From Cirrosporium novae-zelandiae (taxonomy: Eukaryota), in NCBI GenBank assembly GCA_026023565.1, contig JAPETS010000011.1:744001-795753 (forward strand): a DNA stretch of 51,753 bases, read 5' to 3'. The notes beneath the pieces were generated by a model that worked only from the letters and a program-made list of their open reading frames with translations, did no database searches and was not told the DNA's origin. Position numbers and translations under genes: made by a program. How positions within the stretch are numbered: the first letter of the stretch is position 1; each line of letters starts with the position of its first letter. Of this stretch, positions 14,790 through 50,500 are shown in pieces.

Positions 14790-15617
14790 ATGTCATCAGA
14801 CTCATCCATTGGCCAAGCGAAAATATTCCAGTCGCTGGCCCCAGCTTCGGCATGTGTAGTCTGCCCACCTTCTGATTGCCCTGTGTACGCAAATTTCGAA
14901 TACAGACATTTGACGGTAGGAGCAGGCGTGGCAATATTCCATCTCGCCTCTGCTAGAGTTGTGGTATGTTATCATAGCAGAGATAAATACTGGTTTCTAC
15001 CAAAAGGCCGCAGAGATGCGAATGAGGAGACGGGACCCGGGGCAGAGAGGGAAGGGTTTGAGGAGGTGAGCATATGAGATACCCCTCTTCAGATAGGGAG
15101 TATGATTTAATGTGTTTCTTGACAATAGTCTGGGTACCGAAACCGACTTCTTCCCATATCTTTAAGCCACCGGCAGCCCAAACCTCATAACCCTGCCGGG
15201 AAATCTATGACTCCATTTGTGACAGAACCAATTTGGACACAGCTTGTACCCCAATCCCCAAGATCCCAGTATCTCCTTTTCTGGTATATAGCAGAAACCC
15301 TTCCTCCAGATATTGAACAGAGCTTGAATGCACAGACCAAAGAACAAGCTTCCTCATCGTCTGAAAACCCTTACCAGTATCCGCCGAGATATCCTGATGA
15401 TCTGACATTGGCCGCGCGCTTGAAACTTGAACCCCAAGAATATGAACCCTTGCATCATCCAAACACCGGAGTAGATGACGAAGAAGCACAATATGTTTCC
15501 CATCTCCTTCCTATCAACGAAGCGCTACAAAAGTTAAAAGGAAGCCTCCAGCAGACCGTAGTCAATCAAGGATGGGAAGGGATTTGTTTGAGGCATACAA
15601 TGGAGAATCTGACTTGA
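14790..15617 (+). CDS. Nudix hydrolase, about 254 aa; exons 14790-15065, 15129-15617
   Basis: Splicing GTGAGC..TAG (15066-15128) restores a full Nudix box GRRDANEETGPGAEREGFEESGY (GX5EX7REUXEEXGU), preceded by WFLPK. Confidence 0.92.
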
Positions 15618-18600
15618 TTTGATTCCAGAAAGATGAAAACCTCGGGTCAAACCTGAAAGCCCGAAGCTGACATGGTTTCTTGAATTCAATGGTGTATAGT
15701 GGACTGTCTACTAATCTGGCCCTTTCAGCTACACCAATGGTGACCAGGAGGTCCCTATCCATGTTATGCTTGGTACTCTGAACCCGTTACTGTGGTATAG
15801 ACCTACTAAATGCCGAACCCCACCTCCGTAAGGATGATCCCCACCTAGAAAATGCATCTATCCGTTCTCATTCTTCATGTTGTCTTACAGGCCGACTCTC
15901 TACAAAGAAACTACGAAGTGACATAAAAATATCAATTTGAGAATGCACGGGTAGCAAGTGCCTACCCTGCATGCTTCTATAAATATGCTGTGAAGACACG
16001 AAACACTGTCTATCTGAAAATTCATATTAGTACTATCTCCTCATTTAAACAATACTCAAACTGTTCCTAAAGTATGCTGCGACCGATTGCGCTATTCTGA
16101 AAGTCACGGGAGTTGAACCAAGCTGGCGGGTTAAAAACTGGACAATGCGGCGCTTCGGGCCGTCTGCACTAGCAAAAAATATAGTAATTGGATAAAAATC
16201 GCATGTCAAGCATAACCAACGAACGGAACTAAGAGGTTCACTTGAGAGTGATTGTAAACGCGTTCTTGATTTTATTGATCATCTGTAACAACGGCGGGGA
16301 GGAGGGGCTCGTTGGAACGAAAGGCACCAATGAGACGCGTAAGTCCTAGACGCGAGAAGGAGGGTGGAAAAAGGGGTTTTCATGATGGTCGTTTCAGATT
16401 ACAAGACCACCCCTCGAATCGAGTATTCCTATCACCTATTTTGTTTGGGGATTTCTCCAACATTATAGGTTCGAAAGTCGAACCAGATCAAACCGCCGCC
16501 TTGTTTGAAGGTCCTCTCAATGTGAATTGGACAATATCTCTGCCTTTCGATTAACGTCCTAGGCGCTTAAGTGTACGAGAAAGGCCTAGGTACCTAGGTA
16601 CTAATGGCTCGTTATCCTATGAGGAGGTTCTGCAAATTTATTGTTGGCTCCTATATTTTAGGGCTTGGGGCCATTTTGCTTATCGAGAATAAACACTTAC
16701 GACAGCACGGGGTCGGAGGGAGCCGCATTCAGTGCCAGCTAACAGCCAAATAGTCGGAGACTCGGGAATCAATATATCTTTCTTTTTCAATTGCCGTTAC
16801 CGCTCACAGGCCAATTGTAGCTCTTAGAATCCAGTCCCGGCTCATTGGCTTGTTGACGGTTCACCACTAGTAGCAAAGACATTCGACATCCCGTTCGTTC
16901 TCCCCAGGGTGTTCTCTCCATTGACTATGGTCAGACTCTGACGCTATAGTTCATTATCATATTCGGGCCGTCGAAACGCTTCTGCAATGTTGACGGTAGA
17001 GATGTGTACTTCTGACGACGACAAGTTGTTTGAAACAGATGGACAAAGAGGTTACAGGCATGGGGTATTTCCGTTGCACAATTACTTCTTAAGCGCATTA
17101 CTTCGGGCTAAAGCGTTAAAAACAATTGAGCACATAGGAATCAAGGGGTACCAAGGGGCTTTCCGTGTTCATCGTTTTGCAGAGCAACGGGCGATGTGTG
17201 ATGATGATGCAAGGGTTAAGGATGAATGTTTCGTTCCAGTTCACCACAACAACAAACCTCAAACTTCTACTGAATTATAAGTTGATACATTATAGTTCAC
17301 GAAAGCCGAGACGTAGAAGGGCTGCTAGCGAGCTTATTCCTTTTCTACTCCCTACCCAGCCTAGTTTATTTACAGAAATGGCTCCCACGAAATGTTCCGT
17401 CTCATCTCATCATCAAACAAAACCCCTTGCAGCTGTAACAACACACACCAGCTTTTCAGGCTATTGTTAGTTTTCTCCATCATTCTATCCCGACTAGGTC
17501 TTAACATTATACGGGATTTGCTATCTTCCCTATCGCACGAAGTAAAACTGGTAGTCGCCGCAGAGAGAGAGTGAGCTCTGACAAACTTGGCGATTACTAC
17601 TACTCATGTTAGCGATAAGGATCCCGATAAGATGCTGATTCTATATGATGGGATTTTTTTGTGTCATGTCATGGTGATTTAATTCGTAGGTAGGTAAATG
17701 CCTTTAGACGAGATGTATTGGAGTGAGTGATGCGCTTTTGTGATGGAACGGGGGGAGGGCATCTAAATCTTCAAATTGAAAAAATAGAAATGCCCTCCCT
17801 AATTATATCCATAGTCTTTGCCCCTCTCATCCAGCATCCAGCACATACATAAATATCCACCAAAAAGGCCATCATGTCCCAAATGGTAAACCATTAATGC
17901 GATACCGATGTTAAACTTCATGATCAGCAAGAGTCCGACTGACATATTTCGAGTAACAGGTCAGATTTTCCAGTTGACAAGTGATGATATATATATATAT
18001 ATATTCGGAAAATAAACTTGAGTGAGTGAACAACAACAATGCTAGGAATACCGAGACGGGACGGGACGGTTAGGGGGAGGATTGATTATATTTATTCTAG
18101 AACAAATGAATTCCCTCCCACAATAATCACAACCCCCTATTCTGATGTAAGTGAGCGAGTGAGTGAGTGAATGAATATTCTACTATACCGTCTTTAATTC
18201 ACCTAGCTTAAGTCCTCCTCCTCCTCCTCCTTCTCCTCCCCATTGTCATCAAATCTTAAGCCCTGGGGGAGAGAGGAAGAGAGGAACAGAAAAAGAGAAC
18301 AAAATCCATTTACCCAAGTAGCTTGCTCATTTACTCATATTTTTTTTACTTTGAATGAATGAATGTATATCAACTCGATTTAAAAGAAAACCAAAAACTT
18401 TCCTCTTAGTATTATCATTATTATTATTTAAAAAAATATTTATCTATGTTCCCCAACCAACTATTTTAGTTCTTTTTTCAGTGTGTTGGTTCTGACTGCC
18501 AATTCTTGGGACTTCTTCCTTCCTTCCATTTCTCGAGAGAGAACCATCTATTTCATTAGTTTTATCTAAAGATTCTAGCTAGCATGGTTATCTAACAAAC

Positions 18601-18632
18601 AAAACAAAGGAACAAACAAATAAAAATCATAA

Positions 18633-19483
18633 ATGACTTCGACCTCAGTCTCATCTTCGCAAGCCGCCAAGCGCAAGAGATGCAATGATGAGACCTCCCT
18701 GCCCAGCTCAGAGACGTTATGTTCTTGTGACAGCAACAACAGCAACAGCAGCAGCAACAGCAGCAACAGCAGCAACAGCAGAAGAAGCAGTAATAGTGAC
18801 GGTCATTCCACCCAGCAAGAGAATACTACAAAACGCAGGAGTAAGTTCCCTTCCTCCCCTTATCCTCCCTCCCAATTCTATATGCAGATACTATAATCCC
18901 CCAAAGCCCCCAAGTTAACAAAACCCCAAACACATAAAAAGCAGAGATCCAAGAACCCAACCCTACTACTACTACTACCCCACAGCCTCCCGCCACCACC
19001 ACCTCTTCATCCCAAGCTAGTCCCTTCCCTCACCATCCCCCCCCTCCTCCTCCTAACCTCCTAACTAACACAGCCGCACTACGTCAAGCGATCCACGGGA
19101 ACCTTCATCAGATAGTCGACCACATTGAGGGCATGCAATGGCAAGGTTGTTTGATGCTGGTCTCGGCTGTGTTGGCTGTGCAACAGAATGTTGGGGATTC
19201 TATATTTTCTGGGGTCTTGGGGGGACAGGGTAGTGCCAGGGGGGAATGGCAGGATTTCTTGTTGACGCAGTTGGGGATTTGGAAGGATGAGCTTAGGGGT
19301 GTGGAGAGGGTTAGTAGTGATGTGATTGTTAGGGGTGGTGATGGTGGCAGTGGAGGAGGATCTGGGAGGGATCCTGGAGATAAACGGAATTGTCAGACAA
19401 GGCGGTGGAAGGAGGAAGTGGGAGAAAACGGGTTGGTTATTTTGGATTTTACTGGTGATGATGATAGCGACAATAAGGGGTGA
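18633..19483 (+). CDS. Hypothetical spliced protein, about 248 aa (Ser/Asn- and Pro/Thr-rich N half, helical C half); exons 18633-18840, 18945-19483
   Basis: GTAAGT donor at 18841 and CAG acceptor at 18944 join ORF 18633 in frame, without stops, to ORF 19133-19483; basic KRKR and KRRK stretches. Confidence 0.6.
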
Positions 19484-20077
19484 GGTTGAAGTAAGGATCA
19501 CTTTTTTCTCATGGAACTTTTCCTTGAGGGGGGCCTTCCTGGTAGAACTTATATTGGAAGGTTTAAGGAAGAATATTATCGAGTTTAGGGAATGGGAAAC
19601 TGCTAGCTAGATCTTGAAAAGAGGATATTAATAGGAAACGGAAGTATTTAGAAATATTTTGGTTATATCTAAGTATACATAATAACTTCATAACCAACCC
19701 GTTTTGCGTTCAGGTTCCATGTGAGCTGTGAGTTACCACCTGGGTAGTTTATTCAAGTATTTAAGTACTGAACCCTATTTCATTAATTTATCCATCCATG
19801 GCCGGGCGTCAATAGACACATTCCCAGCTTTTTTTTTATTCAGGTACAGAAATAAAAAAAAAACTTGTGACTGTAGCTCCCAATCCATAATCCCACAAAA
19901 GGCCGTGTGGAGTTTATAAATCCTTTTCTATTCGCTTGTAATTATTTCTCTCATCTTTCAACTCCAAACCTGGGGGTAGGTAGGTAGGTTAGGTAGGACA
20001 TATATATCCCTCTTGTTGTTGTGGTGGTGGCATCGATTACTTGATTATATGTTAGACATCATACATCATACATCATC

Positions 20078-20885
20078 ATGAATTCAGTTGCTTCGACCGC
20101 CTTTGGGTCATCGGCTTCGGCTGTCTTCTCGTCAGCGAACGGTAAGATGAAACAGGAACTTAGATTCATTTGTGACTCTGAAGCTTCGAGCAGCAGTAGC
20201 AGCAGCAACACCAATGGTGGTCACCACAAAGAAAGATGGTCTGTTCCTACTGTTCACGTCAACAGTCATCAACTTGGTGACTACAGGTCTTCTCCTCATT
20301 ATACCGTCAAAGGCCCTTCAAGTATTCTCCCCCCCCCCCTTATACTCACATCACATACTACATTTTCACTAACAACAACCCCCCAAAAAGCAACATTCCA
20401 AGTAGCACCACTCCACGAACTCGCCAATACCCATATCCATAACCATAACGCCACCTACCCCGAAGAAGAATACATCTTCAATCGATTTGAATTCCACCGC
20501 CTCGTTCAAACAGTTTCCAATAAAATCAAACCTGGTTTCCTCTGGCCACTTCACGTTACCGAGCATGTACAGGAGAATGTGGAGATGGTTTTGAAACGGG
20601 CTTTTGAAGGAATGTATATATTCACCCGTCCCCTCCCTTTTTTTTCTGCTGACTTAAGTTGGATTTTTATTAGACGCCAAGATATGCTGTGAGAAGGATT
20701 CTCGAAACGTAGTTGAATCTCGAGATTTCAGGAATGGTCTAGCAGTGAGAAGTTTGACTGGAGATTATGCTGGTTGGGATGACATGATTGATGGGATTCT
20801 GGCCTGGGATGATACGACAACCGAGGAGGAGTTTTTGTCTGGAGATGAGGACGACATGACATGGGGGACTTGGAACGAGAAGTAG
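20078..20885 (+). CDS. Highly divergent histone H3-fold protein (H3 variant/CenH3-like), about 247 aa if 20610-20673 is spliced as a GA-AG intron; may be a recent pseudogene
   Basis: YIFNRFEFHRLVQTVSNKIKPGFLWPLHVTEHVQENVEMVLKRAFE|DAKICCEKDSRNVVESRDFRNGLAVR aligns without gaps to the H3 fold [72 protein letters not shown]; branch site GCTGAC and TAG acceptor present, donor is GAATGT. Confidence 0.72.
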
Positions 20886-22427
20886 GCTATGATGATGACG
20901 GCTGGAAATGGCCTTGGCCTAGGTCTGGAGTTAAGCTGGTGATGATGGATATTATGGGGGGTTTTCTGTTATGTGAATTGCTCCGCGTAGTCAATGGTGG
21001 CCTACAGAGAGTGGGGACGGCATATCGAAAGATAAGCGGGGACTAGCTTATATCTAGGATATGTGGTAGCGGAAGGGAGAGGAATAACTGAGAATTAGCA
21101 TACTTGAACGAATTATCTTCTTAATGCTGCCTGCCGGTTTATGGCCTACCTACCTAGGTACCTACCGCAAGCTAGATTTTCAATACTAATATTAATAACA
21201 ATGTTCAACGCAGGGGGGAGGGGGTACTTCTATCCAATATCCAAGGGAATTTGTCATAGCAACCCCCATCATATTATATCACACCACATCACATCTCTCA
21301 AGTTCAAGTTCAATCCAATCCATGAAATCCACACACCTTCTTCTTCTTTCCTCACCCCCTCACACATAAAACTAAGAAGAATCCATAGCTTTTGCATCCT
21401 CACTCATCCCCCCCCCTAAAAAGGATTTAAAAAAAAATTGAAATTTTCTTTTAAAACACACATACACATGGCCAAAATAACTGAAAAAAAAAATTGAGAT
21501 AGTTCCGAGCGAAGATTTAAGTTTGAATGAATAAATGAAAAAAGGAAAGTAGGTGTGTGGATAGGTGGATGTTGATATTGATATTATATGAAATATCCAA
21601 GGAGGGGGCGGTCCATCATCGAGAGAGAGAGGGAGAGAGAGGCGAAATCAAACGAACAAATAGGGGGGAAAGAAAAAACATTCAAAATCACCCAACCAAT
21701 CAATTAAGCCTAAACATTTTCATTTTCATTTTTTTCTCTTTCTAGTCACGAACGAGCCCTTTGAAGGATTAATAAAATTATCTTAGTCGCATTTAGTCGC
21801 AACTTGTGAAGGAAGGATACATACCTACCTAGGTACTTACTTACCAAGTTGTATGTAGAGAATAGAAATGGAATAGAATAAGGCTCTGGCTGTGGCTCTG
21901 ACTTCTGGCTTATTTATTTGGCGCACGCTGAGAATAAAAAGGGTGTGGAGGTACTGTACATGTTACATGTACAGTAAATGGCATCTAAGAGTAGAATATA
22001 TGGAATAGAATAACAAAACGAAGGTAGCTAATTAGCTAGTTGATATACCTACTCTCTTTCTTTCTCTTTTCTCTTTTCTCTTTCTCTTTTCTCTTTCTCT
22101 TTTTCTTTCCTTCTCATATATGTCATGTCATGTCATATGTATGCATCATCAAAGAAAGCTTTTTTATTAAAAAAAAAAGGGAGGGAAGGAGGAAGGGAAA
22201 AGAGGAAAGGAACGAAAAAGAGAGGAATATAACGATCAGAAATACTTGCTGGAATATAGTGATTGTTTACAAAAAGGAAGGAGATGTAATTAACTTGTCG
22301 AGTTTTAGTTTGGGTAGGTAGGTAGGTGGTGCAATGAAAAAGGATGTGTACAAGGGTACTCAGTAATTACTTGGTATATTCTTTACCTCTCACGTGCCTC
22401 TTTACCTACTTTTTGCCAATCCTTCAT

Positions 22428-22465
22428 ATACCACATACCACATACCACATACCACATACCATACA
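22428..22465. repeat. 7-bp tandem repeat (ATACCAC) about x5
   Basis: Read directly. Confidence 0.85.
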
Positions 22466-23101
22466 CATACCCCTAAATAATAAATACCATTTAAAGAAAT
22501 AACTTAATCCAGTTCATTCGAATAATCTTTTAAAAGTATGCAATTTTTCTTAAATTAAATAAACAACATCAACTTTCATCCCTCATAAAATCGGTAAAAA
22601 AGGAGATAAGTATATGGGGGGAAGGGGGGGGGGGGTTTGTTCAAGGAATCAAGGACCGAATTGATAGGTACAGGTATATCCATACAAGGTTTTATGCACT
22701 TAGACTCTACTTTTATTGTACTGTAGTATGTACATGTATAGAAAGTACCTAGGTAGATAAATATCCCAAAGTATGGATAAGATAGATCAACTATTGTACA
22801 TGTACTGTACTATAAAAATCTTTCATCCAGGATCTGTGTGCATTTGAGCTCCCATCCTTATACACCTATACATACAAACACACAACTTCCAACAAAATAC
22901 CCTCCTCATCATATCCACGTTTTCATTTTATAATCCTATCAACAACGACAGCAACGACCCCATTATCCGACTCTTTCTCATCCCCCTCCCCCTCCCCCTT
23001 TCAATCCCATAATAGAGACTTTGCCCGGCCCGGCCTGTTATCATTTTTTTAACCACTCCCCCCCCAACCAAACCCACACCCACGCCAACCCACCAACTCA
23101 C

Positions 23102-23627
23102 TTAAATATAAACTTGGTAAAACCCCAACTTAACCTCACCCTCACTCCCACCAACAACCCTCAACACCGCCCTCCCAGCCCACTCCTTCACATCCCTCAC
23201 CCCACCATCACCATCACCACTACCATCCTTCTTCAATTCATATTCCACGTCCCCATACAACATGACCTCAAGCGCATCCGAACCAAAAGGAAACACTTTA
23301 TGAATTGTATGTTTGCGGGATTTTACATACTCCCACATGCTTGCGCGGAGGGATTTGATTTCTGGGGGACTTTGTTAATTGGGGGCACGGGGGACAGGGG
23401 ACGGGAGATGGGAACAACGAACCAGATGTCCCCTGCGCAATCTTAGAACCAAGTTTGAATGTTGCATCGTCGGTGAAAGAATTCACGTAGGTGTCGTGCG
23501 CGTTGGGGTTATCGGAGATTTCGTAAAACTTTTCGAGGAATTTGAGGACTGAGGGGTTTATGGGGAGGTGGGTTGGGAATTCGGCTTTGTAGGATGATGA
23601 TGAGGTGGTGGTGGTGGAAAGAGACAT
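23102..23627 (-). CDS. SnoaL/NTF2-like fold fungal protein, about 154 aa; exons 23627-23423, 23361-23102
   Basis: FLEKFYEISDNP..YVNSFTDDATF..GTS|EIKSLRASMWEYVKSRKHTIHKVFPFG..EVMLYGDVEY..EWAGRA..FYQVY; 61-bp intron GTTCGT..TTAAC..CAG at 23362-23422. Confidence 0.8.
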
Positions 23628-24567
23628 GCTTGGTGGTGAATGGGTCCTTTTTCTTAAATAAAATTCCTATAAGAAGAAGAAGAAGAAGGAGGAGGAGGAG
23701 GAGGAGTGGTTGTGTAAATTTATAAAATTGAGCTGAGTTGAATGTGTCAAGATAAATGTTCTTAACTGTACATGTACAAATATATATTTCGATGAAGGAT
23801 GGTTTTCTAAATAATTAGTAGTAAAATATTTTCAGTAGAACAATGGATATTTGGGGGAAAGACTATTAACTATTAATTATTAACAACGGCGGTGGTCGTG
23901 GCTCACTCATCATCCCCATCATCTTCTTCTTCTATTTCAAATGCAAAGTAATTATCAAACTTGGGGGAGAGAAAAAGTGACGTCGAGCTTTGATTTTCGG
24001 CAGATCATTTCGGGACGAGCCTCCCTCCTCCTCCGCATTCCTTGGCGGGTATAGTAATTAGCGGGCTGGCTTACCTAAGGCACTATTACTTAAGATGTCT
24101 AGCCCTAGCACGCACGCACTTGACCACGGGTCCATTATTGAAGATATGAAAATATCTGTTCAGGGAGGCCCCTCAAATAAAACTGGAGGGGTTTGATTCA
24201 AATTGGTTTCTTAATCGGAGTAGATTTTTTGCATCTTAAATATTGAGGAGGGCTTTTAGATACGAAATGAGCCATGGGAATACTCACTCGTTCGAGAGGA
24301 TGAAGATAAATGACCTAGAATTGTAAGAGTATATTGACTGAGTGTGATTCTGGCATAAGATCAATAGTTCCCATGTTCGAAGAAGGGTTAATTGCATCAG
24401 ATTTATATCATCCTACTTTTCCAATGTTCATAGATTGTACTTTCGAAAGCAGTAGCGTGGGTGAACACATCAAGTCTTATGTCAGCCGTATAGGGTATCA
24501 CATTATTAACCAAACCAATCTCAGACGCCTTTTCCTCCCTGGTATAAGGTTATCCAAGCAAAATAAC

Positions 24568-26830
24568 CTAGCTATTCCCTCTCAGAAACTCGGTTGCTTC
24601 CTCCTCTACAACTTCGCTAATCTCCAGAGCTTTCTTGTCAATCAAGCCTAATCTTGCCTTTCGGATCTCCCACCATAATTCTCTTCGGTCACCACCAAAA
24701 TCACCTTTCAATAATTTCTGCTTAAACTGTCTTATCCACCCATTCCAAGTCTCTGGCTCTTCATATTGGGTCAGTTCATCCCGTAGAACGCCCATCTCTT
24801 CAATCGCACGAGCATAGTTTGCATCACCAAAACTATTAGAGACCTGGTCTTCGATGATGTGTTGGAAATTTTTGGAAGCTTCCCGAACAATAGAAAGGTC
24901 ATCGTTACGTTGCAGCAATTGTTTAAACTCTGGAATTGGATTGGTTGGAGATATTGCAGTTCTATCGGTAGTAGCGGGGGCCCGTGAAGCCAACAATGCC
25001 GTAACATCCAGACCAGAGAGTGGCTTCTCAGGCTCGCGATAATCACCCCGTTTAGCGCGAAGACGAGGAGGTACTTTCTTAACATCGGCAATTTTTATAA
25101 GGGAGTCTAGCGAATCTTGGGATTGCGATACGAGCTCTTTAGGTGAGTTGGAATATCGAGTGATGACTTCGTACGGTGGGGGAATAGGGTCTGTGGAATG
25201 GATAGCACGGAAGCGGATAGCTTGCTCCAGACGGTGGAGCAGCGGCGAATATGTGTCTTCCGGAGCAGCGTATTCCTCGCCGTCAGGAAAATTGGAAAGA
25301 TCCATTGCGTCGACATAGTCACTCATTGAAGAAACAAGATCGTCCGAAGGTAGGTTACGATGGTTTTGAAGTTGTTTGCCGGAAACGGTGACAACCATGT
25401 CTAATGGGGGAAAGCGATAGAGACGCAAGTCTTCGGCGAATGGAAGTTGCACATCGACTAAGCATTCATAGTCCAACTCAATGGAGGGTGCCATGAGAAT
25501 GAGAATCGGGCTTTTTCCAGCTTTAGTAACTAACCGGCCAATAGCATAGGAGTTCATTTCATAGAGTGCATTGATGAATGAGGACAGAGCAAGAGCAGCC
25601 GTGTCGCTAACTCGGGATGCGATAATTATACACGATTGTGATATGTTCATGTAGCGTTCATACTTTAAATGGGTTAGTCCAAAATATTTAGAAAGGTCTT
25701 GTAAACTCGTGAGATATTATCCCAGGGATACTTACCTTCTCTTGAGGTACGAACCCAATAATGTCCAAGCCAGCTTCGGTTTCCAACTTTGTTATGTTTT
25801 CATCGGTCTCGCTGATATGCACAGCTGTGCGCCCATACTCGTAACCCTTTGCCAAATCATCTCGCTCCACATCCCTCTTTCCACCCGGTGCCTCTTCATC
25901 TTGAACTTGATAGGTCCTTGCCTGTTTTACAGACGTCAATGCATTCGAGTTGGCTATCCTGTCTTCATCAAGCATATGAGTGTCCTCTATGGCCGTCCCG
26001 GTGCACTGCGTGCTTGGTCCACCATTGGAGTAATCTGAACGTAAAACAAATGAGCTTGCAGTTGGTGGTTTTGCAACGCTGGTTCGGGGGTAACGCTCCA
26101 CCTGAATACTCAAAACAGAGTCATATTGATTTGGATTGCCTAGAGTCAATGGACCTCGGTACGAGGGCACAGGTCTTACTGGCTTGATCCTTGGAATTTC
26201 CATTTGCTCAATGGCTTCCGCAAGGGTACCAAATACCCCACCGCAGGATTCTGTCATTTCCTTGAGAATTTTCTCGTTTTCAGCTTTGCCTGGTTCTTTA
26301 TTTTCCTCCTGCAATCCATATTCTTCGTCATCAAAATCTACTCCGAGGACCACAAGTTCAATGTGATCTTCCTGAATCTTTCGAATAATTCCGTCGATAT
26401 CATCTGGGTCTATTCCTCCAACCCCACTGGTAACTAGAACAATTCTCTTTTTGAATTTCAACTTCCTGCAATGTTTTGCGATCATCTGGATCGCAATCAC
26501 AATTGCGGATATATCGTCTCCGGAATCTGTATCGTTGACTTTGATCTTTTCCTTCAAGTCCTTCAGGTCGGATAGAAGAAATTGGCCGATATCATGAAGT
26601 ACACTGATATTGCCATAATTATCAGCATCTTTGCTCAGCTCGTTATTTGTGTCGTCGGTTCGTAATCCTAAGACGCCCATGCCAGCTGTTTTTCGACCAG
26701 TGCTCACAGTGGTAGTTATTTTGTCCCATACGTATTGCATTGTCCAATCGAGTGTTATAGTCTCGCCGCGACCTTTGCCCATGGACGCACCCATGTCAAT
26801 AATATAAACGGTAGCTTCCTTGTCTGCCAT
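24568..26830 (-). CDS. ku80: Ku80 non-homologous end-joining subunit, about 729 aa; exons 26830-25736, 25662-24568
   Basis: MADKEATVYIIDMGASMG vWA start, LAKGYEYGRTAVHI, VQLPFAEDLRLYRFPPL core, C-terminal NPIPEFKQLL..ELWW; intron GTAAGT..CTAAC..AAG at 25663-25735. Confidence 0.97.
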
Positions 26831-27294
26831 GATGTTATTTTGGTGAAAGAGTGAATAGAAAAGAAAACTCAAGCATAAGGAAAGAGGAAAGAGGAGCTCT
26901 TTAAGGGTTATTATTTTTTTATTCTGATTCTTCTCAAGGCAGAAGCGGGGGGGTTTCAGCAGATAGAGCGATCGATCATAGAGAATCCAGGCAGACGCGA
27001 AGTGAACACGAAGTCAAATGACGACATTTCTAGCGGTCAAAAGAACGGAATACCTAAATATCTCCGATTGGTTGCATAAAATCAATCTTTTCACCATCGG
27101 AGGCTTACGGGTAGCCCAATTACTCCCAACACACCCCACGTCATCAATTCTGCGTTGTACTAAAGTAGAAACTCCATAAAACGTTCACCCCCACCACTTT
27201 TCGAATCAATTGTCGTCTATATCCAATTACAAAAAGTTTCCGGATATCATCCACAGCGTCAAACAAATTATCCAAGTTGTCAAGTCAGATCAAA

Positions 27295-44169: not shown

Positions 44170-44447
44170 TTCTCCATCACTGAACGCCTTTTCTAGTCAG
44201 CCCGACCCTGGGTTGTTTAGACATATATATATACCTACAGCTCGAGGTTTAGGGGGAAAGTAGTACGGTGGCACGTGCTGGGACAAATATCACCGACTTC
44301 CCGGCACACGTGACTTTGTTTACCAGATGGGTAAAAAGCTCCGAGGCAACTCAATTAATATTTCTTAACCCACCATCTCCGAGATCTTGTTATGGCAAGT
44401 TTGGTTAAAAAAAGTTGGCAGGCGTTTTGGCCTTACATATAGCTCCA

Positions 44448-46613
44448 ATGAAAATACTTTGCGTGGCTGAAAAGCCTTCCATTGCAAAATCTGTTGCCAA
44501 CCATCTTGGGGGAGGTAGGGTTAGAACTGTTAGTTACTCTGGTCTACTTTGGCCTGAAATAATAGCTGATCTAGAATATCAGCATGCCATTCAAGGAAAT
44601 CAATATGTCAAAAACTATGAGTTTGATTTCTCATTTAACCAGCCATGGGGAGATTGTAACGTTACCATGACTTCGGTCCTTGGGCATATTACGGAACAAG
44701 AATTCGCCCAGCGCTACCGGAGTTGGACTTCGTGTCGTCCAGGAGAGCTTTTTGAAGCTGAAATCACCGAATCTATAGCCAAGGTACGGTTAAGAACACA
44801 CCTCTCATTGCTGTGACATAGTTGCTTATAAGGACGTAGGACAAGAAAGGTATTGCTGACAACATCAAAAGACAAGCGCGGCTTGCCAGGATTTTATTTA
44901 TCTGGACAGATTGTGATCGTGAGGGTGAACATATTGGAGCAGAAGTCCGTAAGCAGGCGCTGTTGGGTAATTCAGGAATTGAGGTCAAGAGAGCCAAATT
45001 CAGCAACATCGAAAGAGCCCATATCATCCAAGCAGCCCATAATCCCATTGCCCTCGATGATCTGCAGGTCCACGCGGTTGCTGCGAGAATAGAGCTTGAC
45101 CTTAGAATTGGAGCAAGCTTTACAAGACTTCAGACCTTAGAGTTGAAAAGTCTAGGGGGTGCTCTCCAGGATCGTGTGATTAGCTATGGGTCTTGTCAGT
45201 TCCCTACGCTTGGGTTTGTTGTCGATCGCTATTTCCGAGTGAAGAACTTTGTGCCTGAACCTTTTTGGTCCATTAAGGTGATGCTTAAACGAGATGGCAA
45301 GGAAGTAAATTTCCTCTGGGATCGGGTTCATTTGTTTGACAGGCACGCAGCCATTGTCCTATTTGAAAGATGTCTAGCTGCGAAACAAGCAAAAGTTACA
45401 AAAGTCGCTAAAAAGCCTACGAGCAAGTGGAGACCATTGCCGCTGACTACCGTCGAATTACAGAAAGTAGGTAGCGCAGTTCTACACATGGATAGTTCTA
45501 GGGTCATGAAAGTTGCAGAAGCACTCTACACTAAAGGTTGGATAAGCTATCCCAGAACAGAGACAGATGAGTTCGACAAAGGAATGGATCTTAAGAAACT
45601 CATTGAAAAGCAAGTTCAAGACAACGACTGGGGTCCTTATTCCCAGGGACTACTGGATGGCAATTTCAGACAGCCACGTAAGGGAAGACATAATGATAAA
45701 GCGCATCCTCCTATCCATCCAGTTAACTATGTCGTAGCAACGCAGCTGGATAATGACGAGAAACGAGTTTACGAATTCGTCACCCGCCGATTTCTTGCAT
45801 GCTGCTCCGAAGACGCCAAGGGAGAGCAAACAACAATCAACATCGAATATGGAGACGAAAAATTCCATGCCAGCGGGCTACTCGTGCTGGAGCGAAACTA
45901 CCTCGATGTTTACCCATACGACAAATGGGAAAGCAGCCAACAGCTACCGCAATTTACTGTTGGCGAAACTTTTGAGCCAACGGAAGCTATGATGACCGAA
46001 GGGAAAACAGGACCACCGGGATATCTAACGGAGCCAGAGCTGATTGCTCTTATGGATGCGAATGGAATCGGGACCGATGCCACCATGGCCGAACATATTG
46101 CGAAAATCAAGGACCGGGAATATGTCAGCACGAGGCCACGAGGAAGCGCGGGTGGAGCCGGGGACACAGCTACAGCTACGGGCAGAGGCACAGGCAGAGG
46201 AAGAGGCAGAGGTAGGGGGAGAGGGAGAGGCCGAGGAGGCGGGAGCGTGAACGGAAGAGGGGGTGGTGGTAGCTCCGTCCAGGAGTTCATACCCACACTT
46301 CTAGGCACCGCATTAATCGTCGGATACGACAACATCGGCTTCGAGACCAGTCTAGCCAAACCTTTTCTAAGAAAGGAGATGGAGCTCAAGATGAAAGCCA
46401 TTTGCGATGGCACAAGGACCCGCAACGACGTCGTCCACGAGACCCTGGAACAGTATCGAGAGGTTTTTGTTCGCACACAGCAACAAATCAATGTTTTGAA
46501 AACTGTGAGTCTCAGTTTGTGATGCTTTATTGTTTGACGTATTTTACTAATTGAGTTGTCTGTTTGTGTCTTTCCAGGCCTGCCGTAGATATGTTATAGA
46601 GCAGAATGTTTAG
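44448..46613 (+). CDS. top3: DNA topoisomerase III (type IA), about 660 aa; exons 44448-44528, 44583-44783, 44840-46504, 46578-46613
   Basis: LCVAEKPSIAK, MTSVLGH, IWTDCDREGEHIG (TOPRIM), SYGSCQFPTLGFVV, catalytic ISYPRTET, AHPPIHP, GIGTDATMAEHI; three canonical introns. Confidence 0.97.
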
Positions 46614-47596: not shown

Positions 47597-50500
47597 GATA
47601 GCGGCAGCGAGATATATGCTAATGGGGAACTAGAAATCTACTCTTTCTTGAGCACACGAAGTTGCATTAGGACATTTATCATAGATTGAAAGTTTAAAAA
47701 GCATATAGGTTGTAAAACAATTTCTCTCATCTTCTCTCTAAGTAATCATAAAAAAAACCCCCCCCCTACGAGGTAAATAGAGAAAGAAACAAAAGGTTAA
47801 AAACCATCAACAAACCTTCTCAAAATAAATCAAAAAGTTCACAAAAAACTTAAAAAAAAAAAGGAAATAACGCGAACTTTACACCAACTACCTACTTCAT
47901 TTAAACCCTCGAAAAAAAAAACGCGTTTCCCTTTCTTTCTTTTAATTAACGTTACCTATCCAAGCTTCCATCACCATCACCATCACCATCCCATCTCCGA
48001 AACCTGGTTTAACCAATTAACTACCTAGGTAACAAACTAATAATTACATCCGCCTCTTTCTCTCAACTCTCTCACCGCCCAACAGAATCAGGAAATAGAT
48101 CCGCAAACGAATAAACAAAAAAAACCCCAGCTTAACCCGTTTTCGAGACCCCCGAGGGTGTCACATCGCGCGCGTTCGCGTTTCCGCGCTTTGTTTTCTT
48201 TCTTGCTCGTTTCGTTGGGTTCTGATTAGGTATCTTTCTCTCTCTCTCTCATACGATGGATGATAAGGATTGGAGATTAGATTGGGAGATTTGGATGTCG
48301 AGGTGTTGTCGTGCATGTGCACGTGCAGCTTGCTTACTATGTGTGTAGCTGTTGTAGTTATGTAGTTAGTCATGTAGTTGGGTATATGATAAGAGTTGCT
48401 TTTGTTTTTGTTTTTGTGAGTTGGGTTGGGTGTGTGTATAGGTAATATGATGCAATTGTTGTGTGGCATTGAGGTTTTCATTTTTTTTATTTCTATGGTT
48501 TTTGGCTGCATATATAACATGTGTATTTCGCTTCCTTAAAAGAATATCAAAGTAAAAAAGAAGTAGGTATATACCTTGAAATTGGTATTCAAAAGGGAAT
48601 TGTTATCCATAGAGGGATTTGATATACTTGAGCTTGATGGACGTGAGTGAGTGGGTGAGTGAGTGGTTGTGACATTAGATTGAGTAGAAAAGTGGCATTT
48701 TGTGTTTGCGATTGGAGGATCTGTAGCCATTATCATATCTGAAGGAATTTCTGTTCCATGGCTATTGGATGAATTGGAGAGCACATGATGTTATAAAAGA
48801 GGGAAATAGATGGATTTTGTCTGGATATTGGAATGCTATATAGTAAAAGATAGTATGGCTATCCTTAAGGTACATTTGCTATTGTTGCTTTATATCAGAT
48901 TCTTACCTCTTGCGAGTGATGAGATTAGAATTAAGATGTCTTTGGTGAATGGTGTGGCGTAAATGGCCGATAGTTGAGATGTTACACCTATAGCTTACTT
49001 AGCTATATTGGAAGATTTTTTTGTAGTTGTCTGTGGTATTGATATCGGTTATTAAACCTGAGAAGGAGTTGGGTCTTGTAGGCTAATGTCTGAAGCCATC
49101 AACTCGTTCACTGCATAGCTTTGTGGGTTGATCTATATAGCTGCTAGAGAGAACCGTGAAGATGCTGGACTGGAAAGATAGGTTGTATAAGAATCATGGT
49201 GTTACCAAGTAAGTACCTTGGAGATTAATGTAATGGTTCCTATAACGGTTGAGGGTCGTTCATGGATGATATGTAGTGGAGAGTCTGGCACATGCTAGAC
49301 AGGGAGGGAAAATCAAATCCTCACCAAGTACCTGAATAGCGTTTACATGCTCGATATTCTGATAGGATAGGATAACCTTCGCCTTACTTTAAATACAGAC
49401 TGATAAATGTCCCTAGGTGTCCCTTGATGTACCACATTCTGGACTCATATGCAATTGTGTCAACAGGATTCGTAACCGTAGTCTGTACTCTGTACGACCA
49501 TCATAACTAAACTCAACGGCATTATCCCCTCATACTATCAGCCACTTCTTCCCTTGCCGTATTTTGTGAACTCGACTCGGCATCCGGCAAGCCGACACGG
49601 CCATGTATAACCATAAACGGTTGTAGGTGCAAGTACCCATTCACAATCAACGAAAGAGTCCTCTTAGTAACAGGATCTTGCCAGCAAGAAGGTTGAATAT
49701 ACTTGGTATTTGGTTTGAGCAACGAGAAGGCTGGAATTGTGAAGGTTCGTCATGTTGCTAGATAATTGGGAGATGAAAATCAGTGGTACATAATTATACG
49801 TAAAATGTTGCATGGTGTTGTCTAGTCAAAGCCATGACTGGAAGGGTCGTGGCTAGCGGGGGCTAATGTTGAAAATGATTGATATTTCGGTCCTGCTGCA
49901 GTTTTCATCACAGCTTGGTGAGGTGTACTTATTTCACAAGGATATAAATCCCTATTTTGTAGTTTATGGTGGAGACTGGAGGTGAGCGTACTATAGGGTT
50001 TGTGCTCACAGTTCAGAGATTGATGTTGTTTCAAGTCAGGTCCACCAAGGTTTATAATTCCAATCCCAATCGAAAATATTAGGAAGAATTGAACAGGCAA
50101 CGGAAGAGAGTCGTAAGTTGTAACACGCATATGTACCTTGTTGTCCAATTGGCTATGACTGTTGATGTTGTCATTTCAGGTGTTGCTTTTGGGGGTGGGT
50201 CTTTTTGGTGGCATGTCAAGACCAAATGGAAGGCCGAAAGACTGAGCCAAAGGGGCGGAAGGCCGGGCAGGTCCTTGGGACCCAGTCGTACCAGTGTTGA
50301 TCCCGCTCAATCAGAATCTGGGGGGGAGAGACGTGAGCACGGATGGGTATCCTAATGGTGCGTAATGAAGGCTAAGTTGATAGTTATGGATAGTTATGGC
50401 GCGGTGGTGGCACTGGGGGAGGTCAAGTTGATCTCCCGGCGCCCGTGTAGTGGATTTTACTAACCGCAGTCAATTTTTGAAACAACTCAATTTTGCATTT

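Follow-up and report, generated by a model that had tools for sequence, protein, structure and literature searches.

Histone H3 is among the most conserved eukaryotic proteins. Filamentous fungi normally possess just two or three genes of the H3 family (PMC3538342, citing Hays et al., 2002). The centromeric variant CenH3 is recognised, by the features listed in PMC4359364, from an extended loop 1 and the absence of conserved H3 Gln, Phe and Thr residues; the protein called Neurospora hH3v is identified in PMC4971769 as the CenH3 of that fungus. A further H3-like family, the transduplicated H3L of Pyrenophora tritici-repentis, is described as recognised by the histone profile PF00125, residing inside hAT transposons and numbering about 26 copies (PMC3538342). 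The introns of fungal H3 and CenH3 genes are tabulated in PMC3029354 (Table S3), where site 26 corresponds to codon D106 by our manual column count (no intron phases are given with the table). Four introns occupy this site, all of them in Basidiomycota rows by our reading, and none of the H3 or CenH3 genes of the 11 tabulated Pezizomycotina uses it. Introns with a GA donor are frequent in just two animal species according to PMC7072748, which also describes RNA-supported GA-AG introns in other eukaryotes and their efficient use in human FGFR genes.

The window analysed here is a 51,753-nt stretch of the Cirrosporium novae-zelandiae genome (contig JAPETS010000011.1, positions 744,001 to 795,753). 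Its plus strand contains a gene with the ATG at 20078 and the stop codon TAG at 20883-20885, as read from the sequence. In the public annotation this gene is a two-exon model encoding a 253-aa "hypothetical protein" (P0001), which already includes the C-terminal half and keeps 20322-20390 as coding. The following features were distinguished.

19915-19921, plus strand: TATAAAT, a possible TATA box about 157 nt 5' of the ATG, read from the sequence
20078-20321, plus strand: exon 1, an ORF with the start codon and a Ser-rich, non-basic N-terminal region (codon-usage log-odds +3.4 bits in frame, negative in the other two frames)
20322-20390, plus strand: probable intron 1, 69 nt, in frame and stop-free; donor GTATTC, branch point CACTAAC at 20367-20373 and acceptor AG at 20389-20390, all read from the sequence
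20391-20609, plus strand: exon 2, with the end of the N-terminal region, helix 1, loop 1 and the start of helix 2 by H3-profile alignment (codon log-odds +15.8 bits)
20468-20608, plus strand: equivalents of H3 E59-E105; 20609 is base 1 of the Asp106 codon
20610-20673, plus strand: phase-1 intron at D106, 64 nt, aag/GAATGT ... CTGAC (20649-20653) ... TTATTAG; donor GA (20610-20611), not GT, read from the sequence
20614-20619, plus strand: GTATAT, the best-looking canonical donor nearby; spliced to the AG at 20673, it leads out of frame to a stop at 20690-20692 and gives a 184-aa product ending in ...AFEGIRQDML
20628-20633, plus strand: GTCCCC, donor of the publicly annotated 46-nt intron as seen from the P0001 sequence; GMYIFTH replaces Asp106
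20674-20762, plus strand: last exon, fold part, with the rest of helix 2, loop 2 and helix 3 (H3 D106-A135), along which the gap-free alignment carries on (codon log-odds +1.9 bits in frame, about -17 in the other frames)
20763-20885, plus strand: acidic, Trp-rich C-terminal tail of 40 aa with a net charge of -13, followed by TAG at 20883-20885 (codon log-odds +15.4 bits)

Joining 20609 to 20674 preserves the reading frame (g/ac, Asp). Codon log-odds were above zero for all exons in the proposed frame (3.4, 15.8, 1.9 and 15.4 bits) and below zero in the other frames, while the four flanking pieces were negative in every frame and the segment 20322-20390 was close to zero. This segment is probably an intron, judging from its splice signals, and its removal would shorten the N-terminal part to 107 aa. 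The earlier note on this DNA had overlooked it, along with the GA donor of the D106 intron and the acidity of the protein as a whole.

The central claim of that note, that 20078-20609 joined to 20674-20885 aligns gap-free to the H3 fold, was examined with a profile of 38 intronless H3 proteins built in this analysis. The joined protein aligned without gaps over profile positions 60-129, corresponding to H3 residues 59-128, at 20.4 bits (p = 2.2e-8 for one comparison), and none of 20,000 shuffled versions exceeded 7.7 bits. Alignment with hhalign covered 73 columns with a probability of 76% (E 2e-5) against H3, as compared to 0.1% against the H4 control. The note had named a comparison of this kind as the check to make and the lack of any histone-fold match as the adverse outcome; against the H3 profile the match was significant. 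The junction 20609/20674 ranked first among the 217 in-frame, stop-free junctions at the locus and, at 22.8 bits, first among 46,208 possible joins over the whole window, with both strands and any donor dinucleotide allowed. The top 25 of these joins all came from the locus 20078-20885, the best join elsewhere in the window reached 9.9 bits, and the H4 control profile gave at most 7.6 bits over the window joins. Taken singly, the exons were at noise level: the exon-1 ORF reached 6.7 bits, with E 0.25 for a search of 648 ORFs, and the ORF of the last exon came 21st. With exon 1 fixed and joined to unrelated 70-aa windows, chance scores rose up to 19.3 and 18.7 bits. The H3-profile ORF scan found no second H3-like ORF elsewhere in the window. 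With the GA-AG junction only, helix 1, loop 1, helix 2, loop 2 and helix 3 all have H3 lengths, ungapped over 70-73 columns and colinear with H3 residues 59-135, with 16 of 77 residues identical (about 21%); the annotated model P0001 scored only 8.6 bits, with an hhalign probability of 22%, against 20.4 bits and 76% for this junction. The observation of a joined H3-like fold is thus confirmed.

Residues common with H3 are F67, R69, L70, V71, K79, Q93, E94, E97, L100, F104, E105, D106, C110, R116, D123 and R131, and the profile alignment shows the replacements Q68H, F84W, T107A and T118V. The substitutions reported earlier at Q68, F84, T107 and H113, the retention of R116 and D123, and a loop 1 of ordinary length were all recovered in this alignment. 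Among six residues that we take, from the nucleosome structure, to be DNA-contacting in H3 (R63, R69, R72, R83, R116 and T118), R69 and R116 are kept, and R63N, R72Q, R83L and T118V are lost, that is, three of the five arginines. At the positions of the H3-H3' four-helix bundle, C110 is kept, H113 is replaced by K (CCEKDSR), L126 by N and I130 by V. No alpha-N helix could be aligned, as the H3-profile alignment begins at H3 residue 59, and the tail motifs ARTKQTARKS and KKPHR are absent from P0001. The sequence also agrees with the earlier description of an N-terminal part of about 130 aa devoid of H3 tail motifs and of an acidic C-terminal tail, which reads WDDTTTEEEFLSGDEDD. The net charge is 0 in the N-terminal part, +1 in the fold and -13 in the tail, -12 overall (pI 5.5); an H3 taken for comparison has +16 in its tail and +5 in its fold. 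This acidity of the whole protein weighs against a nucleosomal role more than the loss of H113 does.

The junction falls inside codon D106 in phase 1, a site at which some fungal H3 genes have introns. Introns in the same codon and phase were found at three loci, L110 (ttcgaag/GTATGC..CAG/acacc), L077 and L097; by eye, the L110 H3 agrees over its last 70 residues with the Aspergillus rows of Fig. S3 in PMC3029354. Intron sites in H3 genes are numerous (the 55 introns surveyed fall at 32 distinct position/phase pairs), so coincidence with an H3 site by chance has a probability of about 8%. The GA donor of the Cirrosporium intron is of a very rare kind. It is one substitution away from G/GTATGT, or one 4-nt insertion away from G/GTATAT. 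Apart from position +2, aag/GAATGT is closer to the donor consensus than either GTATAT or GTCCCC, the latter matching the consensus at GT only. Near-donors of the form GNA[AT]GT occupy 0.24% of window positions, or 0.02% when AG precedes, and one of them lies at the very position that colinearity demands. In neighbouring genes, the probable introns have the donors GTATGT, GTAAGT, GTCTGT, GTATGA or GTACGG and lengths of 49-73 nt. Over the intron, the Logan contig of run X1, which probably represents the source reads, has the identical sequence at a word depth of 326, and as this is an independent contig assembly, the GA donor is not an assembly slip. As the intron starts with GA, a colinear protein requires non-canonical splicing; otherwise, the gene is newly broken. 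RIP-type decay was set aside on inspection, because the change at the donor is either an insertion or a T-to-A transversion and no stops occur in the exons.

Structure prediction gave leads in the same direction. All ESM Atlas feature matches belonged to the histone-fold clan, with scores of 0.83-0.85, which the tool rates as leads only (below 0.9) and which shuffled proteins reach about a third of the time; the leads included clusters with CENP-S, TAF and CBFD_NFYB_HMF domains at 0.79-0.84. The ESM Atlas model of residues 128-188 aligned to histone models with a TM score of 0.55 by query. Co-folding of P0001, the annotated version, with H4 residues 20-103 in ESMFold2 scored 0.59, against 0.01 for the best of three controls, a result rated weak that may stem from the model's memory of H3-H4 structures; across these runs, at least 60% of contacts agreed and the partner pLDDT was at least 58. 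When the method was calibrated, 51 of 78 solved complexes passed the mark, as did 2 of 108 mismatched pairs, and passes at scores of 0.60 or less comprised only 5 of the 78 solved complexes together with all 4 passing mismatches (of 180). Because H3-H4 complexes have already been solved, the pass demonstrates likeness and not binding. AlphaFold2 run on P0001 without an alignment gave a mean pLDDT of 30.9, which was unusable.

An exhaustive phmmer search of 1.84 billion representatives returned the protein itself and one low-complexity match (P0002), which falls on the translation of probable intron 1 (residues 78-104), and the single match of a word-indexed search was the gene's own product. 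No Pfam family, including PF00125, TAF, CENP-S/T/W/X and NF-Y, matched P0001 or the exon translations at E <= 10, the lone chance match on the exon pieces being Zn_ribbon_NrdR (E 0.13). The best PDB sequence match of P0001 was an H3/CENP-A chimera, in the same register, with E = 1.1. As far as these searches reach, they support a lineage-restricted orphan gene, as the earlier note had proposed. Capture by a transposon was considered and rejected: the interval 15000-26000 contains low-complexity repeats only and no terminal inverted repeats, and no transposase domain was found in the 32 ORFs scanned.

The reading that we favour, with a probability of about 60%, is a lineage-restricted gene of H3 descent that encodes a non-nucleosomal histone fold and is either spliced non-canonically or newly disabled. 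Its H3-type fold is supported by the profile statistics with their window-wide controls, the phase-1 intron site at D106, the ESM Atlas leads and the weakly rated H4 pairing. Two or three exons encode a non-basic N-terminal region of 107-130 aa, the H3-type fold and the 40-aa acidic, Trp-rich tail. If GA-AG splicing produces the colinear mRNA, the protein may form a histone-fold handshake dimer with H4. It would be unable to build the (H3-H4)2 tetramer or to wrap DNA because its tetramer interface is altered (H113->K, L126->N), R63, R72, R83 and T118 are lost, no alpha-N helix can be aligned, the basic tail is missing and the net charge is -12; it could then be a soluble partner that binds H4 and has an acidic tail resembling those of chaperones. 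If canonical splicing rules are strict, the product would instead be truncated in helix 2, and the gene would stand at the start of decay. A bolder version, which we think unlikely, is an acidic, tail-less "anti-histone" that retains only the H4-pairing half of H3 function, has acquired an acidic Trp-rich tail of its own, sequesters or escorts H4 or H4E, and owes its expression to a functional GA-AG intron handed down from an H3 gene. The function of histone decoy or nucleosome destabiliser proposed in the earlier note is pure conjecture.

That the gene is a young pseudogene is a real possibility, though not the one we would choose. An H3-derived gene would have been under selection until recently, when a donor lesion (T->A at +2, or a 4-nt insertion) forced splicing onto the best canonical donor in the vicinity, GTATAT at 20614, with a stop at 20690-20692 and a frameshifted 184-aa product in which helix 2 is cut short and loop 2, helix 3 and the tail are missing. 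The presence of the GA donor both in the window and in the independent contig assembly fits this scenario, as do the lack of relatives in the exhaustive phmmer search, the fact that no RNA turned up for 19900-21100, and the last exon, still open and coding-like in codon usage as expected after a recent lesion. However, 70 open downstream codons with good usage are equally expected under continued translation, aag/GAATGT fits the donor consensus better than either GT alternative if +2 is left aside, and RNA-supported GA-AG introns exist elsewhere, as in human FGFR genes (PMC7072748). It is doubtful that the public annotation is correct, with an intron at 20628-20673 (GTCCCC..AG, 46 nt) and a 253-aa protein, P0001, in which helix 2 is six residues longer than in H3. 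Its junction is the sole GT-AG one that brings the last exon into frame and scores above exon 1 alone against H3 (8.6 bits, the best for a canonical donor), it restores an H-A-K triplet, which phmmer places on the HAK of CENP-A/H3, and the weakly rated H4 result came from this very version. Yet its donor fits the consensus at GT alone, its intron is shorter than the 49-73 nt of neighbouring genes' probable introns, and it lowers the H3 score from 20.4 to 8.6 bits and the hhalign probability from 76% to 22%. Moreover, automatic gene callers choose poor donors merely to hold a frame open.

Chance resemblance, in which H3-like helical segments have arisen by accident in an orphan ORF, a de novo ORF or a mis-called gene, appears to us just as doubtful. 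It would account for the missing Pfam match and homologues, the PDB E-value of 1.1, the noise-level scores of single exons (the H4 control profile scores similarly on random ORFs, 6.9 bits) and the ESM values of 0.83-0.85 that shuffled proteins attain about one time in three, and the likeness was first noticed by a reader who scanned the whole window by eye for any family. Against it, the join outscores the best of about 46,000 alternatives elsewhere in the window by 13 bits; a near-consensus donor with a good branch point and acceptor lies exactly where colinearity needs it, on a real H3 intron site and phase; and the profile, the language-model features and H4 co-folding (controls 0.01), three methods drawing on different information, all indicate a histone fold. 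Membership in another histone-fold family (TAF, CENP-S/T/W/X, NF-Y/Dpb) is very improbable. Although ESM Atlas neighbours with CENP-S, TAF and CBFD_NFYB_HMF domains score the same as PF00125 clusters, none of those Pfam families matched P0001 or the exon pieces at E <= 10, the H4 profile reached an hhalign probability of 0.1%, the intron sits at an H3 site, and the H3-specific F-x-RLV, QE, FED, C110, R116, D123 and R131 are ungapped over the full H3 fold. The idea that the gene is the CenH3/CENP-A of C. novae-zelandiae is hardly tenable. Q68, F84 (W here, as in the "RWQS" CenH3 rows of PMC3029354, Fig. S3), T107 and T118 are replaced, substitutions that PMC4359364 counts among the diagnostic features, and the N-terminal region is unalignable. 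But loop 1 is not lengthened in the gap-free alignment, H113 and most DNA-contact arginines are lost from an acidic protein, and a broken donor is unlikely in an essential gene. Moreover, the fungal CenH3 rows of that figure keep most of the stretch from FEDTNLCA to RRIRG, against 16 of 77 H3 matches here, and the Pezizomycotina CenH3 introns of Table S3 are at sites 12 and 22, not at D106. Of the H3/CenH3 origin suggested in the earlier note, the H3 part is thus upheld by the profile and the intron site, while the affinity to CenH3 comes down to three substitutions, with loop 1 not extended and the CenH3 introns located elsewhere (PMC3029354).

A lineage-restricted gene of H3 descent, if real and expressed, would show how far the H3 fold can drift while remaining colinear, with about 21% identity, the basic character lost and an acidic tail gained, and would offer a natural test of which H3 residues serve H4 pairing alone and which serve tetramer or DNA contacts. 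The D106 intron also lends itself well to the question of whether the spliceosome of a fungus is able to splice from an otherwise-consensus GA donor. If the gene is newly broken, a lineage-specific histone variant would have been caught dying at its first lesion. For annotation practice, the poor GT donor of the public model conceals the H3 homology.

Compared with known systems, the Cirrosporium gene resembles H3L of P. tritici-repentis (PMC3538342) as an additional H3-like gene of a Pezizomycotina genome, with variable fold helices, that can be assigned to neither H3 nor CenH3; unlike H3L, it has no Pfam match, no flanking terminal inverted repeats (15000-26000), no transposase domain (32 ORFs) and no second copy in the window. 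With CenH3/CENP-A/Cse4 it shares an unalignable N-terminal region and the replacement of Q68, F84 and T107/T118, including a W at position 84, which the rows of fungal CenH3 in Fig. S3 of PMC3029354 also show, whereas its loop 1 is not longer, its identity to H3 is far lower, four-helix-bundle and DNA-contact residues are lost, the tail is acidic and the intron site differs from those of the Pezizomycotina CenH3 genes in Table S3 of the same paper. From canonical H3 (PF00125) it differs by its 16/77 fold identity without a Pfam match, the absence of the ARTKQTARKS tail and of an alignable alpha-N helix, the replacements R63N, R72Q, R83L, T118V, H113K and L126N, a pI of 5.5, the 40-aa acidic Trp-rich tail and the GA donor; common to both are the ungapped, colinear order of helix 1, loop 1, helix 2, loop 2 and helix 3, a phase-1 intron at D106 as in some H3 genes and a predicted, weakly rated pairing with H4. 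The ascomycete H4 variant H4E is, as described in PMC10878826, conserved across a subphylum and clearly H4, in contrast to this remotely H3-like orphan; both are Pezizomycotina variants with their own intron/exon organisation and no known role, and H4E is a conceivable partner of the Cirrosporium protein.

The window is fungal chromosomal DNA; genes neighbouring the H3-like one include those for alpha-amylase, a Sec14-type protein, DUF3602, Ku80, DUF4149, a protein kinase, topoisomerase III and an AAA_28 protein. Between 14 and 24 kb, no Pfam match was obtained among the 32 ORFs scanned. The features used below are as follows.

1388-2962, + strand: alpha-amylase (Pfam), housekeeping, split by short introns
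20078-20692, + strand: first ORF of the H3-like gene, from the ATG at 20078
20322-20390, + strand: probable intron 1, 69 nt, GTATTC...CACTAAC...AG, in frame and without a stop
20610-20673, + strand: intron inside the fold, 64 nt, branch point CTGAC and acceptor TTATTAG, both good
20658-20885, + strand: second ORF, in another frame, ending with TAG at 20883-20885
24568-27013, - strand: Ku80 (Ku_N, Ku and Ku_PK_bind domains; Pfam), housekeeping, split by short introns
44409-46522, + strand: topoisomerase III (Toprim, Topoisom_bac; Pfam), housekeeping, split by short introns

Several repeats lie in this region. A CAG/CAA (poly-Gln) array at 18731-18790 is just upstream of an ORF at 18938-19483 (+ strand), which had no Pfam match in the same scan of 32 ORFs. 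The palindromic 10-mer TACCTAGGTA occurs five times in the window (16591, 21151, 21826, 22746 and 48022) against 0.02 expected, a count reached in 0 of 100 shuffles; four sites fall within the Pfam-free stretch, at 16.6-22.8 kb, the fifth being at 48022. A dispersed micro-repeat and a regulatory motif are both possible explanations. Related GGTAGGTAGG and CCTACCTACC runs flank the gene (approximately 19975-19997 and 21147-21168).

The first ORF has a single match among database proteins, a 253-aa entry titled "MAG: hypothetical protein" from Cirrosporium novae-zelandiae (Xylobotryomycetes). This public model, P0001, joins 20627 to 20674 across a 46-nt GTCCCC..AG intron and reads locally ...KRAFEGMYIFTHAKICCEKDSR...; thus the C-terminal half, which the earlier note held to be missed by the ORF track, is already annotated, with a junction different from the one proposed there (20609|20674).

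For comparison with H3, 120 H3-bearing metagenome loci were collected via a degenerate motif, and a profile was built from 38 intronless H3 proteins (MAR start, 133-141 aa, R-x-RG end) out of 66 motif-bearing ORFs, 55 of them unique. The 20609|20674 join scored 20.4 bits (p 2.2e-8), gap-free to H3 residues 59-128, compared with 8.6 bits for P0001 and 6.9 bits for exon 1 alone; 0 of 20,000 shuffled sequences exceeded 7.7 bits. In hhalign this colinear join gave a probability of 76% against H3 (73 columns) and 0.1% against the H4 control. A Pfam search with the annotated protein and the exon translations returned nothing at E <= 10. The H3 evidence resides in the join: the exon-1 ORF, the highest single ORF in the window (6.7 bits), is not significant (E 0.25 over 648 ORFs), the last-exon ORF ranks 21, and random ORFs score up to 6.9 bits against an H4 control profile. 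With exon 1 fixed, unrelated 70-aa windows gave up to 19.3 and 18.7 bits. Because single exons are not significant and such chance windows score high, all joins in the window were scanned on either strand, with introns of 40-120 nt that end in AG and may start with any dinucleotide, and with a minimum of 55 open codons before the junction and 40 after it. Among the resulting 46,208 peptides the same junction ranks first (22.8 bits), which confirms the earlier observation of an H3-like join. None of the other 217 in-frame junctions counted at the locus scores as high, ranks 2-25 are all at this locus, the best score elsewhere is 9.9 bits, and the H4 profile reaches 7.6 bits at most. The H3 likeness far exceeds chance for the window, and a fortuitous resemblance to H3 is improbable.

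Several further methods bear on the fold. In the PDB, the best sequence match of P0001 is to a chimera of H3.1 and CENP-A, aligned in the correct register but only at E 1.1. The ten best family-bearing neighbours in the ESM Atlas all belong to the histone-fold clan (0.83-0.85, graded by the tool as leads only), and the Atlas model of residues 128-188 superposes on histone models with a TM score of 0.55 by query. AlphaFold2 without an alignment gave a pLDDT of 31. ESMFold2 runs of P0001 residues 122-216 with H4 residues 20-103 scored 0.59, 0.61 and 0.58, graded as weak support, against 0.01 for the best of three controls; the partner pLDDT was 59 with H4 and 32 with H4 replaced. Since H3-H4 structures are already solved, this result indicates likeness and not binding. 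Altogether, we consider the product to be a true H3-derived histone fold, with a probability of about 0.8.

The donor of the intron inside the fold, aag|GAATGT, starts with GA rather than GT and otherwise fits the consensus, departing from it at position +2. Either a single T-to-A change in G|GTATGT or a single 4-nt insertion into G|GTATAT would produce it, and near-donors of this type occupy 0.24% of window positions (0.02% with AG preceding). It is not an assembly slip, because a Logan contig of the probable source run, with word depth 326, is identical across 19900-21100. The main rival explanation, in which the GA donor arose as a recent lesion that has only now killed the gene, seems to us possible but less likely. 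The best canonical donor nearby, GTATAT at 20614, shifts the frame to a stop at 20690-20692, yielding a 184-aa product whose fold breaks off in helix 2. The annotated donor, GTCCCC at 20628, matches the consensus only at GT, and its 46-nt intron compares with 49-73 nt for the probable introns of neighbouring genes, whose donors are GTATGT, GTAAGT, GTCTGT, GTATGA or GTACGG. GA-AG introns are rare; RNA data back them in several eukaryotes, and human FGFR genes are reported to use them efficiently (PMC7072748). For codon usage, log-odds trained on 3,093 codons from the window's Pfam-supported ORFs are positive in all proposed exon frames (3.4, 15.8, 1.9 and 15.4 bits), while the remaining frames, and every frame of four flanking pieces, give negative values; hence the last exon is, or was until recently, read in a frame reachable only by a phase-1 junction. 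In an exhaustive phmmer search, the translation of probable intron 1 was the sole segment with an outside match, of low complexity (P0001 residues 78-104; residues 772-798 of the 1519-aa protein P0002, in 14 stretches), which is most likely compositional.

The junction interrupts codon D106 in phase 1. Three fetched H3 genes (L110, L077 and L097) have an intron at this site and in this phase; that of L110 reads ttcgaag|GTATGC...CAG|acacc, and its last 70 H3 residues match, by eye, Aspergillus rows of Fig. S3 of PMC3029354. By our manual column count, D106 is site 26 of the 31 of Yun and Nishida (2011; PMC3029354), with four introns, all in Basidiomycota rows by elimination, and none in the 11 Pezizomycotina sampled there. 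As H3 intron sites are many (32 position/phase pairs among 55 introns), this agreement, expected by chance about 1 time in 12, is supportive and not decisive. A phase-0 intron after K79, common to 11 fetched H3 genes (L006, L011, L016, L026, L027, L029, L035, L076, L079, L087 and L115), coincides with site 23 (column 192 by our count), which is the hot spot of Basidiomycota in PMC3029354, Table S3.

The fold shares 16 of 77 residues with H3, keeping F67, R69, L70, V71, K79, Q93, E94, E97, L100, F104, E105, D106, C110, R116, D123 and R131. Substitutions are R63N, Q68H, R72Q, R83L, F84W, T107A, H113K, T118V, L126N and I130V, including the replacements of Q68, F84, T107 and H113 noticed earlier. 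No H3 tail motif was found in the N-terminal part and no alpha-N helix could be aligned. Net charges are 0 (N-terminal part), +1 (fold) and -13 (the acidic C-terminal tail already described, 40 aa), in total -12 with pI 5.5; an H3 example has +16 (tail) and +5 (fold). Provided that the colinear mRNA is produced, its protein would pair with H4, or possibly with H4E, an ascomycete H4 variant (PMC10878826). It would probably be unable to tetramerise or wrap DNA and so might partner H4 in soluble form, with an acidic tail like that of a chaperone.

Judged by its residues, the protein is not a conventional histone: it is acidic, and the tail, the tetramerisation histidine and most of the DNA-contacting arginines that were checked are gone. 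Of the earlier interpretation the H3-derived fold stands, but the CenH3 part does not. Loop 1, as had been noted, is not lengthened in the gap-free alignment, its extension being one criterion quoted in PMC4359364; the fungal CenH3 sequences aligned in PMC3029354 are far less diverged, and the intron here is at a different site. A CenH3 identity, which is that of Neurospora hH3v (PMC4971769), is not credible on these sequence features. Unlike H3L of Pyrenophora tritici-repentis, described in PMC3538342 as transposon-borne, multicopy in hAT elements and recognised by PF00125, the gene has no PF00125 match in its annotated protein or exon translations, and neither terminal inverted repeats at the gene nor a transposase among the 32 ORFs scanned was found. 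H3L is nonetheless the nearest precedent, being by the account in PMC3538342 an extra H3-like gene in Pezizomycotina, distinct from both H3 and CenH3.
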